Shown: piece after piece, positions 9,607-15,898 of the stretch
Numbering within the stretch: the first letter of the stretch is position 1
How the letters are laid out: each line of letters opens with the position of its first letter
Origin: Corallococcus sp. EGB
GTDB taxonomy: Bacteria; Myxococcota; Myxococcia; Myxococcales; Myxococcaceae
Reading direction: 5' to 3'
DNA length: 64,000 nucleotides
Assembly (NCBI RefSeq): GCF_019968905.1
Contig: NZ_CP079946.1
Location: forward strand, 5,857,356-5,921,355
Program-made: the position numbers and the translations under genes
The notes under the pieces: generated by a model
The model's database searches: none
The model's input: the letters and a program-made list of their open reading frames with translations, nothing else
Told to the model about the DNA's origin: nothing

Positions 9607-11874
9607 TCAATCCGCGTAGGCCGGGAGGTCGGCCAGTCGAATCTGCAGCTTCGTCACTTCACCGGGACGGATGGGAGCAGACAACAGCTTGCTCGTTCCG
9701 CCGGGGTCCTGCGGGTCCACCACACGCAGACGGTAGGTGCCCACGGGGAGCGGGAACTTGCTCAAGGGAGACGTTCCCAGCTGCGTGGCGCCGTCGAACA
9801 CGGCCGCGTTCTTGGGCACCGTGTAGAGCGTGAGCCAGCCCAGGCCCGCCTTCGCGGCGCCCTTCGAGGTGGACGTGTCGAGCACCTCCGGGTTCGCCTC
9901 CTGCGTGACGGTGGTGATGGGCTCCGGGGCCTCGGGCTTCGCGGGGCGCGTCTCCGCCTTCGCCACCGCGGGCTTTTCCGCCACGGCGGGCGCAGCGCTG
10001 GCGCCGGCCGGCCTGGCCTTGTGGCTGCCCTTGCTCCCAGGCGCCTTCTTCGCGTCGGCGGCCGTTGTCTCCACCACGGGTTCGGATGGAGGCGAAGGCG
10101 CCACCTCCGGCGCCTTCTCGGGCTCGGGGGCGGTCTTCTGGGCGAATCCAGGAGGCGGACCGGAGGGCTTGGGCGGCCACTGCCCGTTCGCGGCCGGGTC
10201 CACGGGCGGAGGCGGATCCAGCTCCGCCTGCACCCACTGCTTCGCGGACTCGTATGCCGGCATGAACACGCGGCGGACGGGCTCGAGCGTCGCCAGATAG
10301 GCCACGCCGCCGAGGAGGACGAGCAGGAACAGGCGCATGCCCCAGCCGGAGCCTTCACGGGCGGGGGTGGCCGGGGGCGGCGCTTCGGCGCCCTCTTCTT
10401 CCGCGTGACGCGAGGCCCGGGCGGAGTTGCGCGCGGGACGGGCAGGAAAGCGCCGGGTCTGGAGCTCGCTGGGCGGATCCATCAGCCCCTCGGGCTGGGA
10501 CGCGCCCCGGGCTTCGGCGGGTTCGGGCCGCGTGCCGGGACGGGCGCGCGAGGGCCGGGCGGCGTCCGGAGGAGGACGCACCACGCGGGGAATGGGCGCC
10601 GCGTCCGAGGGACGCTGCGCTCGTGGCGTCACGGTGGGCGTGTTGACACGCGACGCACGGGCATCAATGGCGTCCGCGGCGGGACGCGGCGTCGCGCGAG
10701 GGCCGGGCGTCGCGGACTCGGTCGCGGCGCGGCGGGCGGGCGTGGGCTTGGGAGACTGCGCGGTGTCCGCGGGCGGGGCCTCCGCGTGCGGCGACTTCAC
10801 CTGCGCGGTGGGCGCCGCGGCGGCCTGAACACTCCCCTCCTCCGCCTGGAGCGCGCCGGCGGCCTCGCTGACGCGGGCGTCCTCGGCGCGGCTGGCCAGC
10901 TCCAGGAGCGTGCGCGTCTTCTGGCGCTTCTCCTCGAAGAGCTCGCCCATGACGGCGGCCATCTGGTCTTCGTCGAACAGCTCGGAGCCCAGCGTGGCCT
11001 CGATGGCGCGCGCCATCTCCCGGCACGTGCCGAAGCGCTGGGCGGTGTCGCGCGACAGCGACTTGAGCACCACCGCTTCCAGGGCCTCCGGCACGGCACC
11101 GTTGAGCGAGCGCGGCGCGGGGATCTCCCCGTCCACGATCTGCATCATCACGGCGGCCTCGCCCGGGGCGTTGAACAGGCGCTGACCGGTCAGCAGTTCG
11201 TGGAACATCACGCCCGTGGAGAACTGGTCGCTGCGGCCGTCCAGGTCCTTGTTGCGCACCTGCTCCGGGGACATGTACCCGCTGGTCCCCTTCACGGTGC
11301 CCACCTGCGTGCGCCCCAGCTTGCCGCGCGCCTTGGCGATGCCGAAGTCGATCACCTTCACGACGCCGTCGTAGGTGATCATCACGTTCTTCGGGGACAC
11401 GTCGCGGTGCACCACCGCCACGGGACGGCCCGACGGATCCATGAAGTGGTGGGCGTAGTGCAGGCCCAGGCACGTGTCGCGCATCACGCGCGCGCTGAAG
11501 CCCAGCGGCAGCGTGTAGTTGCGCCGCGCCGCCATCTTCACCACCTGCTCCAGGTTCTGGCCCGGCAGGAACTCCATGGCGAGGTACAGCTCGCCGTCCT
11601 CCTCCCCCAGGTCGAACACCTGTCCGATGTTCGCGTGCGAGAAGGCCGCGGTGATGCGCGCCTCGTCGAGGAACATCTTGACGAACTGATCGTCCTTCTT
11701 GATGTCGGGGAGGATCTGCTTCACCGCCACGAACTTGCGGAAGCCACCGGGGCCGGAGGTGTACGCGAGGAACAGCTCCGCCATCCCTCCCATCGAGAGT
11801 CGGGTGAGGATCTCGTATTTTCCGATGCGCCGCCCCCGGTCGGGATCTTCTCCGGCGCCTCCCTGCATGCTCAT
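9607..11874 (-). CDS. Ser/Thr protein kinase with long disordered linker, TM segment and C-terminal PEGA-like domain
   Basis: 755 aa. Hanks kinase motifs (VAVK, HRDVSPKNVM, DFGIAKA, SPEQ) are followed by a ~300 aa Pro/Ala/Arg-rich low-complexity linker, a hydrophobic helix and a C-terminal PVGTYRLRVVD (PEGA-like) region. Confidence 0.9.
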   Translation of the reverse strand: MSMQGGAGEDPDRGRRIGKYEILTRLSMGGMAELFLAYTSGPGGFRKFVAVKQILPDIKKDDQFVKMFLDEARITAAFSHANIGQVFDLGEEDGELYLAMEFLPGQNLEQVVKMAARRNYTLPLGFSARVMRDTCLGLHYAHHFMDPSGRPVAVVHRDVSPKNVMITYDGVVKVIDFGIAKARGKLGRTQVGTVKGTSGYMSPEQVRNKDLDGRSDQFSTGVMFHELLTGQRLFNAPGEAAVMMQIVDGEIPAPRSLNGAVPEALEAVVLKSLSRDTAQRFGTCREMARAIEATLGSELFDEDQMAAVMGELFEEKRQKTRTLLELASRAEDARVSEAAGALQAEEGSVQAAAAPTAQVKSPHAEAPPADTAQSPKPTPARRAATESATPGPRATPRPAADAIDARASRVNTPTVTPRAQRPSDAAPIPRVVRPPPDAARPSRARPGTRPEPAEARGASQPEGLMDPPSELQTRRFPARPARNSARASRHAEEEGAEAPPPATPAREGSGWGMRLFLLVLLGGVAYLATLEPVRRVFMPAYESAKQWVQAELDPPPPVDPAANGQWPPKPSGPPPGFAQKTAPEPEKAPEVAPSPPSEPVVETTAADAKKAPGSKGSHKARPAGASAAPAVAEKPAVAKAETRPAKPEAPEPITTVTQEANPEVLDTSTSKGAAKAGLGWLTLYTVPKNAAVFDGATQLGTSPLSKFPLPVGTYRLRVVDPQDPGGTSKLLSAPIRPGEVTKLQIRLADLPAYAD

Positions 11875-11968: not shown

Positions 11969-12757
11969 TTAGGCGCCAAAGCGCTGGCGCCGCACGTCGA
12001 GCATCCAGCCCTCGAGCGCCGCCACCGCCGCCGGTTGAGGCTCCAGAGGCAACACGGAGCCCGCGTCCGCCGCGTCGAGCACCGCGAACGCACGCGACAC
12101 CTCGCGCTGCCACTGCTCGCTGAGGGCTGCATCCAACTCGATGCGCTCACCGCGCTGCTTGCGCTCCACCAGCGCGTGCGCCTCGCCAAAGCCAAACGGC
12201 TCCAGCAGGACGGTGACGTCCGTCTCCACCTCGCCCGTTCGCAGCGCATGCGCTCCGGTGAGCGTGGTGCGCAGCACGTACAGCAGCTTCTTCACGGAGC
12301 GGAAGCCGCTCTTCTCCCATTCACGCAGCTGCCCCTGCGCGAAGCCCCGGTAGTGCCGGTGGATGCGCCGCGACAGCACGGCCCGCACCAGGGGCCGCAG
12401 CGTCTCCAGCTCCGGCAGGGCCCGCACGGTGATGGCGCCGAGCACCCGCTCGATGTAGTTGCCGTTGCCCTGGAGGATGCCCAGCAGCACGGGCTGCAAT
12501 TCGTTGGACGAGTAGTCCACCTCCACCCCCTCCAGCACCTCCATCCGCTCCGCCGGCACGTGCCGTGGCTGGAGGCCCAGGAGCGCGGCGGTGGGCGCGA
12601 TGTGGATGCCCTTGAGGTCCAGGTCGCTGTCATGTGACGGGAAACCGTACGCATGCGCGCCGGACAACGAGATGACCAGGTGCTCGCGCTCGAGGGACTC
12701 GGCGTCCAGCACGCGGTCCGCCATCCGTTCCTGATGCTCCGTCAGCTTGCCCTTCAT
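11969..12757 (-). CDS. Minimal Pol-beta superfamily nucleotidyltransferase (PF10127/RlaP-like predicted nucleotidyltransferase)
   Basis: 262 aa. LSGAHAYGFPSHDSDLDLKGIHI matches the GS-x(9-13)-DxD nucleotidyltransferase signature and is followed by a helical C-terminal domain (KKLLYVLRTTLTGAHALRTGE). Its ATG overlaps the upstream gene stop (ATGA). Confidence 0.7.
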   Translation of the reverse strand: MKGKLTEHQERMADRVLDAESLEREHLVISLSGAHAYGFPSHDSDLDLKGIHIAPTAALLGLQPRHVPAERMEVLEGVEVDYSSNELQPVLLGILQGNGNYIERVLGAITVRALPELETLRPLVRAVLSRRIHRHYRGFAQGQLREWEKSGFRSVKKLLYVLRTTLTGAHALRTGEVETDVTVLLEPFGFGEAHALVERKQRGERIELDAALSEQWQREVSRAFAVLDAADAGSVLPLEPQPAAVAALEGWMLDVRRQRFGA

Positions 12758-14040
12758 TCCATCCCTCCTTCCAGCGCCGGAGCCTCCGGCGCGTCACGGC
12801 CCAGCGGCCCGGGCGTCTTCAAGACCCAGCGCCGCGCCACTTCGGCCCCCACCCGCCGCAGCAGCTGGTCCGCGCGGGCGTAGTCCGGATGTTCCGGCAG
12901 CCGGCTCTCCCGGTGCGCGGCCTCCAGCGCAGGCGCCATCGACTCCGCGTCGCGCAGCACGTCCTCCAGTGGCACCTGTCCGCCCTTGATGTCGAGCAGC
13001 CGCGCCTTCAGCGACCCCGTCGCCTCGAAGGTGGGCACTCCGTCGCGCAGCCAGCCCGTCGCCAGCGACACCAGCCGCAGCAGGTTGTAGGCGTTCTTCG
13101 GCCGCAGCTCCCGCGCGGCTGGAGGACGCTGGCCGCCGCCGCGCGCGTACGCCGTGAGCGCCGCGAAGTCGTTCGCCGCGAGCAACCCCTGGTCCCAGAG
13201 CGAGCGGTAGAGCTGCTTGACGTACGTCTTCGCCGCGAGCACCGCGTCCTCGGGCGTGGGCGCCGCGCGGGGCGACACGGCGGCCAGGCGCCTGGCCACC
13301 TCGTCCAGGTCCGGCGTGGGGTCCTCGCACAGCCACGCGAGCAGCAGGTCGCGGTGCTCGGCCAGCCGCTGACTGCGGGTGAGCTTGTCGAGCTGGCTCA
13401 TGGCGTAGCGTCCGAAGCTCCCGAAGATGGCCTTGGAGACGAACGCCTCCCGGGCCTCCAGCACCCACGTGCCCAGCTCATCCACCGGCGTCGCGCCGGG
13501 GACGAACAGGGTCTCCAGCGTGTTCGGATCCGCGCGCAGCGCCTGCTCCACCGTCTTGCGGACCTCCCAGTACGTGGTGCTGCCATCCGCGCTCACCAGG
13601 TCCTGCGGCGGCTGCCCCAAGCCCAGCGTCCACGGCAGCGGCAGCGCGAACACACCGCGCACGTCCACATCGGAGCGCTCATCCGCCAGCCCCCAGGCGT
13701 GACTGCCCACGCGCGTCTCCAGCACCACGCACGGACGCAGCGCGCCCCAGGCCGCCTCGCGCCGCTGGGCGAACTGCACCTGGCCCACCCGCCGGGGCAC
13801 CAGCTCGTCGCGCGCGAACCACACCTCGCCCACGCCCACGATCTGGATATCGAATCCGCCGTCATGCGCGCGCACGACGCGGCCCACCACGCCCTGGGGA
13901 ATGCGGCGTCCGGACAACACGCGCTCCACGCGGGTCGTGACCTCGGTGCCATGCGGCAGCGGCACGGACAACCGGTCGACCTGCTCCAACCCACGGACCC
14001 GCGCCGGGGTGGAAGAAGCGCTCTCACGGGTGTCGCTCAT
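12754..14040 (-). CDS. Pol-beta superfamily nucleotidyltransferase paralog with extra N-terminal ~90 aa beta-rich domain
   Basis: Track ORF 12754..14604 overlaps the kinase gene out of frame. The internal ATG at 14040 is preceded by AGGAGGG. GSHAWGLADERSDVDVRGV carries the same nucleotidyltransferase signature as the neighbour, with a C-terminal KNAYNLLRLVSLATGWLRDG helix. Confidence 0.65.
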   Translation of the reverse strand: MSDTRESASSTPARVRGLEQVDRLSVPLPHGTEVTTRVERVLSGRRIPQGVVGRVVRAHDGGFDIQIVGVGEVWFARDELVPRRVGQVQFAQRREAAWGALRPCVVLETRVGSHAWGLADERSDVDVRGVFALPLPWTLGLGQPPQDLVSADGSTTYWEVRKTVEQALRADPNTLETLFVPGATPVDELGTWVLEAREAFVSKAIFGSFGRYAMSQLDKLTRSQRLAEHRDLLLAWLCEDPTPDLDEVARRLAAVSPRAAPTPEDAVLAAKTYVKQLYRSLWDQGLLAANDFAALTAYARGGGQRPPAARELRPKNAYNLLRLVSLATGWLRDGVPTFEATGSLKARLLDIKGGQVPLEDVLRDAESMAPALEAAHRESRLPEHPDYARADQLLRRVGAEVARRWVLKTPGPLGRDAPEAPALEGGME

Positions 14041-14117
14041 CGGTCCCTCCTGGATGGGGTGGTGGCCACGCGGGACGCAGCGAAGCACGCGAGCCTGACC
14101 CGGCCCGGTGCCTCCCG

Positions 14118-15134
14118 TCAGCGCGGCGCGATGCGTCTCACTGCGGGAACTGGTGGAAGCAGCCCCTCGACTTCGGATGCCAGGGGAAGCGCCGCCACCG
14201 CCCCCAGCTTCGTCACCACGCGGGCCCCCACGCCCGCGGCGAAGGTCATCAGCGCGACCAGGTCCTCGCGCGTCGCGCCCTCCAGTGACGCCGCGTCGCC
14301 ATACCCCCGCACCAGCCCGCTCAACATCGCGGACACGAAGCCGTCGCCGGCGCCCGTCGTGTCCACCACCGTCACCTGGGGCGCGGGAACGGAGAGGACC
14401 TCGCCCCGCCAGAGGAACACCGCCCCGCGCGGCCCCAGCGTCACCACGGGCAGCCGCACGCCCTTCGCGGCCAGGACGTGCAGGGCCGCCTCCGGCGAGT
14501 GCTCGCCGGTGGCGAAGTGGATCTCCTCCTCGGACAGCTTCACCACCGTGCACAGCGGGAGCATGCGGCCCAGGAGGACTTGAAGCTCCTCGGGCTGTGT
14601 CCACACGTGCAGCCGCAGGTTCGGGTCACAGCTCACCAGCATCCCGGCCTCACGCGCCAGGGTGAGCATGCGCACCATGGCCTCACGCGCCTCGGGCAGG
14701 AGCAGGGAGTTGGAGCCGCAGTGAAGCGCCTTCGCACGCCGAACGAAGTCGCCATCCACGTCGGAGTCGTCCAGCAGGAACTCCGCCGACCGCGTCCGGA
14801 AGTACGTGAAGGTACGCTCGCCATGCGCATCCAGCGAGACGAACAGCAGGCCCGTGCGAGCGTGGTCCACCTGGCGCAGGCGGCTCACGTCCACGCCATC
14901 CGCCGCCAGCCGGTCCCGCAGGAAGTGGCCGAACTCGTCGGAGCCCACCACGCCCACCATCGCCGAGCGCAGCCCCAACCGCGCGAGCCCCACGGAGACA
15001 TTGGCCGGAGAACCGCCCGGCGCCGGCTTCCACGCCTCCACGTCCCGCACGCGCGCGGCACCACCGGCCACGGGAAGGAAGTCCACCAGCGTCTCGCCGA
15101 CACACACCACGTCCAGCGGTCCGGCTTCGTGCAT
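14118..15134 (-). CDS. PfkB-family carbohydrate/nucleoside kinase (ribokinase superfamily)
   Basis: Track ORF extends to 15602 as an Arg/Ala-rich extension. ATG at 15134 gives MHEAGPLDVVCVGE...; the C-terminal DTTGAGDGFVSAMLSG is the PfkB signature. Confidence 0.8.
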   Translation of the reverse strand: MHEAGPLDVVCVGETLVDFLPVAGGAARVRDVEAWKPAPGGSPANVSVGLARLGLRSAMVGVVGSDEFGHFLRDRLAADGVDVSRLRQVDHARTGLLFVSLDAHGERTFTYFRTRSAEFLLDDSDVDGDFVRRAKALHCGSNSLLLPEAREAMVRMLTLAREAGMLVSCDPNLRLHVWTQPEELQVLLGRMLPLCTVVKLSEEEIHFATGEHSPEAALHVLAAKGVRLPVVTLGPRGAVFLWRGEVLSVPAPQVTVVDTTGAGDGFVSAMLSGLVRGYGDAASLEGATREDLVALMTFAAGVGARVVTKLGAVAALPLASEVEGLLPPVPAVRRIAPR

Positions 15135-15163: not shown

Positions 15164-15898
15164 TCAGTCCAGGCCCACCTGCGCCATGAACTCCACGCTC
15201 TTCAGCTTGCGGCCCACGTGGTGCGCGATGAAGACGTTGAGCAGCCCCCGCGCCCGAGCGCGCAGGTCCGCGGGCAGCGGCGTGCGCTGACCTTCCTGGA
15301 GCGAGCGCAAGCCCGCCAGCAGCGCCACCGGCACCGGCACCGAGTCGCGCGCGCGTCCGCCACAGGGCTCGCACACCGCGCCACCATGGCCCTGATCGAA
15401 CCGGGGCCGCTCGCCGGGCTGGCCGCCACACAGCGAACAGGAGTCGAAGCGCGGCATCAGCCCCGCCTGCGCCAACGCCGCCAGCTCGAACGCGAGCAGC
15501 GACGTGGGCCCGGCCTCCTTCGCGTCCAGCCGGTGCAGGTAGCCCTCCGCCAGCTCGAACAGCTCCGGGTGAGGCTCGTGGTCGCGCGTGAGCTCGCGGC
15601 ACAGCTCCACCGCGTACAGCGCCCGGGCGATGAGCGACAGGTCCTCACGCGCGGCGTAGAAGCCCGCGACGATGTCCGCCGAGTCCAAGCGCACCGTGCT
15701 GCCGCGCGTCTCCACGAGCTGGACGCGCAGCCGCATGAACGGCTCCAGCGCCCCCGCGAAACGGCGCTTGCTCTTGCGAGCGCCCGCGGCGAACGCGGTC
15801 AGCTTGCCGTGCTCACGTGTGAGCAGCGTCACCAGCCGGTCGGACTCACCATAGTCCACCGTGGACAGCACGAACGCGTCGTCGGCGTACCGCTCCAT
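15164..15898 (-). CDS. recO: DNA repair protein RecO
   Basis: 244 aa with an N-terminal OB-fold region and the C-terminal Cys cluster CSLCGG...CEPCGG typical of RecO. Confidence 0.85.
   Translation of the reverse strand: MERYADDAFVLSTVDYGESDRLVTLLTREHGKLTAFAAGARKSKRRFAGALEPFMRLRVQLVETRGSTVRLDSADIVAGFYAAREDLSLIARALYAVELCRELTRDHEPHPELFELAEGYLHRLDAKEAGPTSLLAFELAALAQAGLMPRFDSCSLCGGQPGERPRFDQGHGGAVCEPCGGRARDSVPVPVALLAGLRSLQEGQRTPLPADLRARARGLLNVFIAHHVGRKLKSVEFMAQVGLD

Follow-up and report, generated by a model that had tools for sequence, protein, structure and literature searches.

The RlaP family of nucleotidyltransferases (NTases), which counts more than 10,000 proteins, owes its name to an association with RNA ligases and was reportedly first described by Burroughs and Aravind in 2016. 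Two adjacent genes encoding a long and a short protein of this family are the subject of this study; they lie in a stretch of 64,000 nucleotides of the Corallococcus sp. EGB genome (contig NZ_CP079946.1, positions 5,857,356 to 5,921,355), hereafter called the window. The first biochemistry on the family dates from December 2025 and concerns single-chain enzymes encoded inside rtc operons (Carruthers, Fatma and Huang, bioRxiv preprint, December 2025; PMC12776372). In that work PfRlaP and PaRlaP acted only on RNA among E. coli macromolecules, and the Pseudomonas RlaPs added one or two nucleoside monophosphates (NMPs) to RNA when its 3' end was a hydroxyl but not when it was a phosphate; on a mimic of a cleaved tRNA they favoured the end left by the break, and they could restore the aminoacylation of a tRNA that had lost a nucleotide (PMC12776372). 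The catalytic signature was described as "three strictly conserved aspartic acids" (PMC12776372). The analysis presented here makes it somewhat probable that the Corallococcus pair forms a heterodimeric RlaP-type RNA 3'-end NTase for RNA or tRNA repair, and that it is a core gene pair across Myxococcota. What is new is an architectural variant of RlaP, in which two diverged modules are coupled or fused and one of them carries a KOW/SH3-like domain.

The RlaPs of Pseudomonas fluorescens and P. aeruginosa resemble the window proteins in belonging to PF10127 and in the build of an NTase core and, C-terminal to it, a helical domain that ends in a closing helix. They have the same conserved acidic residues as the short subunit of the window. 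Addition to RNA 3'-OH ends is predicted for the window pair. In Pseudomonas each RlaP is a single protein, its gene lying between rtcB and rtcA and controlled by RtcR, whereas the window encodes two coupled, diverged paralogues that are fused in relatives, at a locus with no RNA ligase. The long subunit departs further from Pseudomonas RlaP by its SH3/KOW-like N-terminal domain, an insertion of ~85 amino acids (aa) in the helical domain and a serine at the position that aligns with the third aspartate. The antibiotic NTases ANT(4'), AadA, AAD(9) and LinB, like the modules of the pair, consist of an NTase core followed by a helical domain, and ANT(4') acts as a dimer, a precedent for two such modules working together. 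The ANT(4') relatives differ, however, in their low identity to the pair (10-15%), their Pfam family, their small-molecule substrates, their homodimeric state and the absence of a KOW/SH3 domain. GlnE has two modules with opposing activities on a protein substrate, but it has no sequence-family relationship to the pair, in which no opposing activities have been seen. Gene types that adjoin relatives of the pair are also known from the Rtc/Ro loci (rtcR, rsr-Y RNA and rtcBA) and from tRNA arrays with RtcB and HflX (PMC7790460; PMC8421152), whereas the window has no rtcR, rsr or rtcB and the related loci have no Y RNA detected by Rfam. Long arrays of tRNA genes reportedly adjoin rtcB and are induced together with rtcB and hflX when translation is stressed (PMC8421152).

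Two diverged RlaP paralogues

Both window proteins, which have 100% identity to proteins from Corallococcus sp. EGB, were assigned by Pfam to PF10127 alone, and no NCBIfam model matched either NTase. With a gathering cut-off of 23 bits for PF10127, the short protein scored 90.4 bits (E 1.9e-25) over profile positions 24-248 of 249, and the long protein 71.5 bits (E 1.2e-19) with its residues 105-224, over profile positions 20-144 only. The match of the long protein is confined to the NTase half because of the ~85-aa insertion in its helical domain, which was located by hhalign. A BLASTP comparison of the two proteins aligned only the G...DxD stretch (E 4e-5). Alignment of the two families with hhalign gave 98.9% probability (E 2e-17) over 201 columns, a region that covers the NTase core, the K..Y..LR..TG helix and a C-terminal LP..P motif. 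Judged by this profile alignment, the long and short proteins are real paralogues over both domains. An earlier note on this DNA had proposed that both are RlaP-like NTases of the Pol-beta type, paralogous to each other and sharing the helical motif, and all of this was borne out. It had also pointed to an extra, beta-rich N-terminal domain in the longer paralogue, which reappears in the AlphaFold2 model as a barrel with fold matches to SH3, KOW and Tudor domains. This barrel possibly binds RNA or a partner protein.

A conserved gene pair with natural fusions

The window pair belongs to a distinct and widespread subfamily, present in at least 302 species-level genomes and in hundreds of metagenomic contigs. 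Our scan used one genome per species and recovered 302 loci that encode a relative of the long protein; counts given out of 80 refer to the best 80 of these 302, all from Myxococcota (12 Corallococcus and 68 others). Orthologues of the long protein share at least 63% identity across the phylum, and the identity tracks taxonomy, with 92-96% in Corallococcus, 83-87% in Myxococcus and 77-80% in Archangium. Of the two proteins the long one is the more conserved (for example 85% against 75% between Corallococcus and Myxococcus).

The short gene directly follows the long gene in 66 of the 80 myxobacterial species loci. The two window genes, which lie on the minus strand, overlap by ATGA, as the earlier note had it, and the same kind of junction is widespread: a 4-nt ATGA or GTGA overlap was found in 82 related loci, ~24 loci beyond these have other short overlaps, and the overlap is 8 nt long in 11. 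Recurrence of the same overlap in 82 related loci puts the arrangement of the pair far beyond chance. An exhaustive profile search further uncovered single-chain fusions of 640-725 aa, with the long-type module N-terminal and the short-type module C-terminal, forming 21 clusters at 50% identity and, in a second search, ~80 clusters at 90% identity. Those that carry names come from Myxococcota or "Deltaproteobacteria" metagenome-assembled genomes (MAGs). The order of the modules is the gene order of the window pair, and natural fusions that keep the gene order are a classical signature of two proteins acting in one complex. The conserved overlap and the same-order fusions together argue that the two subunits are translationally coupled and very probably form a stoichiometric heterodimer, giving strong support to a suggestion already made from the window alone.

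A phage search found only distant (24-29% identity), single RlaP-like genes, in actinophages and in a Burkholderia jumbo phage. One assembly titled "Comamonas sp. KCTC 72670" (L018, BNCN01000014.1) encodes a long RlaP that is 86% identical to the Corallococcus protein, within flanks of the Myxococcus type, and is probably mislabelled or contaminated.

Predicted structure and active sites

In the AlphaFold2 models, an NTase core and a helical domain make up each module. For the concatenated window pair, in an alignment that included the natural fusions, the model reached a predicted local distance difference test (pLDDT) score of 88.9 and a predicted template modelling (pTM) score of 0.84. This pTM exceeds the reach of the confident larger module alone, which makes up 62% of the chain, and so implies a defined arrangement of the two modules in the model. 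Mutual information between the two halves, with average product correction (APC) over 116 non-redundant paired sequences, was dominated by clade-defining positions and is not readable as contacts. The closest solved folds retrieved by Foldseek were ANT(4')/KNTase, AadA, AAD(9) and LinB (E 1e-4 to 1e-2), the modules also matched GlnE and HalB, and the helical parts matched HEPN-like domains. The likeness to HalB and to the antibiotic NTases is that of a shared Pol-beta scaffold.

The residues expected of an NTase are kept in both subunits to a different extent. In an alignment of 55 sequences, made of the concatenated window pair and 54 fusions, both modules keep the glycine motif, the D-x-D motif and the K/Y/R helix invariant. 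In the short subunit, G33, D45, D47 and D81 are invariant among the aligned relatives. In the long subunit, G112, S113, S123, D124 and D126 are invariant in two alignments of homologues, and the G-S and D-x-D motifs are kept in every long homologue tabulated (more than 160). An intact GS...DxD signature had been read from both genes in the earlier note; this holds for the long protein (G112-S113, D124-x-D126), whereas in the short protein the D-x-D stands but the glycine motif is G33-A34 by alignment, not G-S, with Ser and Ala alternating among relatives. The third catalytic carboxylate is ambiguous in the long subunit. The long-subunit residue aligned with D81 of the short subunit is Ser154 in 143 of the 143 long proteins of the unfused clade, and the same position holds Asp or Glu in 52 of the 54 fused N-terminal modules. 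Two residues before S154, D152 is invariant in the clade, and nearby E159 is nearly invariant, being replaced by Ala or Ser in ~11 of the 143. From these alignments, either the third carboxylate of the long subunit may have moved to another position, or this subunit may have weakened catalysis. In Hyalangium versicolor (L053), a stop codon replaces the conserved W158 of the long protein, which suggests decay or a sequencing error.

Association with RNA repair genes

Three independent relatives of the pair adjoin genes of RNA repair. In the first (L085 5022-9046, on the 1.38-Mb ENA contig ctg321412), a natural fusion of 681 aa, P0406, is divergent from an RtcR gene across 372 bp of intergenic DNA, and the RtcR gene product has both the RtcR and the sigma-54 activator domains. 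Neither RtcB nor RtcA was found within 7 kb of P0406. A strict GG-N10-GC filter found no sigma-54 promoter before P0406; a partial TGGCAC-N5-TTTT seen by eye was not used as evidence. In the second (L074), the pair is followed by a TROVE/Rsr-like open reading frame (ORF), rtcR and rtcB. The short gene of this MAG (L074 7275-7641) keeps only residues ~5-36 and 168-262, so that the NTase core is missing, and both TROVE and rtcR are broken up into several ORFs, possibly through errors of long-read assembly or through real decay. The third case (L118 and L123, from the same organism) has the order HflX, long RlaP, six tRNA genes, Ro60, five tRNA genes and RtcB. In L123 the tRNA genes are those for Gln, Phe, Lys, Ser, Gly and Thr and then, past Ro60 (TROVE and vWA_Ro60 domains), those for Asn, Val, Glu, Arg and Pro. 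The long-type RlaP of L118 and L123 has no visible short partner. Rfam searches of L074, L085, L087 and L123 detected no Y RNA or other family, only the tRNAs in L123.

For three independent RNA-repair-linked loci within 1.23 Mb of flanking sequence, a Poisson estimate that assumes, generously, one rtcR and one rsr per 9-Mb genome gives P ~0.003. The association of the subfamily with RNA repair genes is real but rare. The earlier note was right that RtcB is absent from the locus, as we found for the whole 64-kb window. An argument from this absence against RNA repair is not supported, since relatives lie next to RtcR, RtcB, Ro60 or a tRNA array.

Proposed function

In the mechanism that we favour, the ATGA overlap would lead to roughly equal synthesis of the long and short subunits, which would then assemble into a complex, as the conserved coupling and the natural fusions suggest. 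The short subunit is a canonical RlaP, with an NTase core bearing D45, D47 and D81 and a helical domain. The long subunit is a diverged RlaP, with a larger helical domain and, at its N-terminus, a barrel of the SH3/KOW-like type. By homology to the characterised Pseudomonas RlaP enzymes, the complex would most likely transfer one or a few NMPs from a nucleoside triphosphate to the 3'-OH of a broken or trimmed RNA, probably a tRNA, while the KOW/SH3-like domain would help in holding either the RNA or a partner protein. In this way, what ribonuclease damage had removed from the RNA would be restored before religation, within a response to RNA damage or translation stress.

Several observations weigh against this proposal. 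The 64-kb window has no RNA ligase (RtcB), RtcR or Ro60/Rsr gene, ~95% of the related loci are without an RNA repair neighbour, and the subfamily shares only ~25% identity or less with the characterised or phage RlaPs. Neither the single proteins nor the 55-sequence profile retrieved anything relevant from the PDB sequences, in a set that apparently lacks the PfRlaP crystal structure. The AlphaFold2 support for a fixed interface is mixed, since the natural fusion P0406, modelled from a similar alignment, had a pLDDT of 93.2 and a pTM of only 0.58. The serine aligned with the third catalytic aspartate means that the long subunit may be non-catalytic. Finally, in ~10 Hyalangium-like loci the long gene is on its own, and at least 1.4 kb downstream of it is free of a short gene; either the heterodimer is then not obligatory, or these genomes may encode the partner elsewhere. 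In one of these loci (L050), a gene that by eye resembles purine nucleoside phosphorylase lies on the opposite strand where the short gene would be.

If a heterodimeric RNA 3'-end repair enzyme is indeed encoded here, the set of known RNA repair components grows, and RNA repair becomes open to experiment from a new side in myxobacteria, which carry several RtcB paralogues. One may also ask why the enzyme should need two active sites, or an active site beside a degenerate one.

Neighbouring genes and conservation of context

The earlier note had placed a PfkB-family kinase immediately upstream of the pair on the same strand, preceded by RecO, with a Ser/Thr kinase after the pair. Pfam confirmed all three assignments, and the recO, PfkB, long, short and Ser/Thr kinase genes are all on the minus strand (Table 1). 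This context is specific to one genus: all 12 Corallococcus loci have PfkB, recO, the Ser/Thr kinase and glyQ around the pair, against 0 of the 68 other genome loci. For the kinase, this is the outcome of a synteny analysis that the earlier note had itself named as refuting. No PfkB gene was found within 6 kb of the pair or the fusion in the metagenomic or fused loci, and gene calls on three further contigs gave entirely different neighbours. When all flanking ORFs of 170 loci were clustered, no conserved third gene emerged; the Ser/Thr kinase was the sole flanking family to recur across unrelated contexts. PfkB, RecO and the Ser/Thr kinase are not parts of the system. For annotation, this corrects a tempting operon inference, as the adjacent PfkB kinase is not a partner of the NTases.

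Neither the PfkB protein nor the long or short protein matched any PADLOC model at E <=0.01, including those for CD-NTase/CBASS and Hailong. The defence role suggested in the earlier note found no support in this search, nor in the behaviour of the genes, which are inherited vertically as core genes with identities that track taxonomy. Because identities of 63-96% follow taxonomy and the ordinary chromosomal contexts differ between genera, the pattern of conservation, as far as sequence comparison tells, fits a vertically inherited core function (housekeeping or stress) and not a mobile defence island. A scan of the window region for promoters and terminators gave nothing informative, and an Rfam scan of the same region found no Y RNA and no other family.

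Of the 170 loci, 30 have a Ser/Thr kinase ORF no more than 6 kb away from the RlaP pair or fusion, ~2x the chance expectation for Myxococcota in a set of loci that are phylogenetically non-independent. Besides the window, kinase neighbours were seen in L030, L034, L035, L042, L062, L063, L087, L088 and L094. In the window and in L087 the adjacent kinase gene is downstream on the same strand; in L062 and L063 it is also on the same strand but upstream, and in L030 and in Archangium it is upstream and divergent. The kinase was judged too weakly supported to be included as a member of the system.

Alternative explanations

In a variant of the heterodimer proposal, which we consider somewhat unlikely, only the short subunit is catalytic, and the long one is a non-catalytic scaffold for RNA binding, targeting or regulation by means of its barrel and enlarged helical domain. 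The extra domains do sit on the long subunit, and S154 in all 143 unfused-clade proteins, set against Asp or Glu in 52 of the 54 fused N-terminal modules, together with the replacement of E159 by Ala or Ser in ~11 of the former, would fit a reduced catalytic ability. Yet the G-S and D-x-D motifs are retained in every long homologue examined, the clade-invariant D152 and the nearly invariant E159 make a shifted third carboxylate plausible, and the long protein is the better conserved of the two (85% against 75% between Corallococcus and Myxococcus). A further idea, that the double RlaP is a two-site RNA-end processing machine specific to Myxococcota and their relatives, in a ligase-independent branch of the translation-stress response, seems to us unlikely. 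The two modules might then divide addition from proofreading or removal of nucleotides, in the manner of GlnE, or each half of a nicked tRNA, with the KOW/SH3-like domain holding it, might be the substrate of one module, possibly under regulation by the frequently adjacent Ser/Thr kinases.

Other readings abandon RNA ends altogether. That the pair adenylylates an antibiotic or other metabolite as an ANT(4')/Lnu/AadA-like dimer, a useful activity for soil predators that both meet and produce antibiotics, is very unlikely: the likeness to ANT and AadA exists only at the level of the fold (10-15% identity, template modelling score ~0.45-0.5), whereas the sequence family is PF10127, of which the tested members modify only RNA among E. 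coli macromolecules (PMC12776372). The genes linked to relatives of the pair are those of RNA repair, not of resistance or biosynthesis, and both the KOW-like domain and vertical, phylum-wide inheritance would be a misfit for a resistance gene. The fold similarity to HalB and the Ser/Thr kinase ORFs within 6 kb in 30 of the 170 loci, directly adjacent in several unrelated contexts, could point instead to a synthase of a short oligonucleotide or cyclic nucleotide messenger of the HalB/CD-NTase kind, possibly tied to the kinases. We regard this as highly improbable, as no effector or receptor gene is conserved beside the pair, there is no PADLOC or CD-NTase match, characterised RlaPs extend RNA ends and do not make free oligonucleotides, and the ~2x excess of kinases is weak and phylogenetically non-independent in a phylum where protein kinases are very numerous. 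Scarcely plausible is the proposal of the earlier note that PfkB and the paired NTases constitute a module for nucleotide or nucleic-acid modification, signalling or defence, including the version in which PfkB serves as an RNA 3'-kinase upstream of RtcB. The proximity that prompted it is confined to Corallococcus, PfkB being absent from the flanks in 68 of the 68 other genome loci and in all the metagenomic loci; none of the three proteins matches a PADLOC model; and the pair is a vertically inherited core set, not a patchy island gene. The PfkB protein looks by its profile like an ordinary sugar kinase, such as fructokinase or IolC, and this profile and the synteny together speak against it as an RNA 3'-kinase.

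Feature coordinates and other fused relatives

Table 1. Coordinates of the features at the Corallococcus sp. EGB locus and of selected related loci.
Feature	Position	Strand	Length	Basis and remarks
Ser/Thr kinase gene	9607-11874	minus	755 aa	Pkinase by Pfam
Short RlaP subunit gene	11969-12757	minus	262 aa	PF10127; NTase core (G33, D45-x-D47, D81) and helical domain (K156, Y160, R163)
ATGA stop/start overlap	12754-12757	minus		Long stop and short start, read from sequence
Long RlaP subunit gene	12754-14040	minus	428 aa	PF10127; starts MSDTRESA
GGAGG Shine-Dalgarno of short gene	12764-12768	minus		6 nt upstream of ATG
NTase core, long subunit	13441-13728	minus		Residues ~105-200: G112-S113, D124-x-D126, S154 (aligned third-carboxylate position); D152, E159 nearby
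N-terminal SH3/KOW/Tudor-like beta-barrel, long subunit	13789-13959	minus		Residues ~28-84; AlphaFold2 model and fold matches
PfkB-family kinase gene	14118-15134	minus	338 aa	PF00294, E 1e-63
recO	15164-15898	minus	244 aa	RecO by Pfam
tRNA/RNA-repair island, L123	2014-10300			Metagenome contig Ga0138256_10009318; more tRNA-like matches after RtcB
Solitary long-gene loci, Hyalangium-like clade	L046-L051, L053, L058, L067, L070			

A different kind of fusion was also encountered. P0479 (L087 3456-5162) is a protein of 568 aa in which a long-type RlaP is joined to a C-terminal HAD-IA hydrolase; its RlaP part has a shorter helical domain and matches PF10127 at positions 18-248. This HAD-IA-fused variant (P0479, P0467, P0477 and P0478) is named only in Planctomycetota MAGs. 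In L087 its gene comes after that of an RNA 2'-O-methyltransferase resembling SpoU/TrmH and before two protein kinase genes. Elsewhere, a gene for a class-I S-adenosylmethionine (SAM) methyltransferase (Methyltransf_11/25; L086 6244-6999) ends 1 bp before the fused RlaP gene, and another fused RlaP gene has three tRNA genes (His, Ile and Ile; L091 547-802) on the opposite strand just ahead of it.

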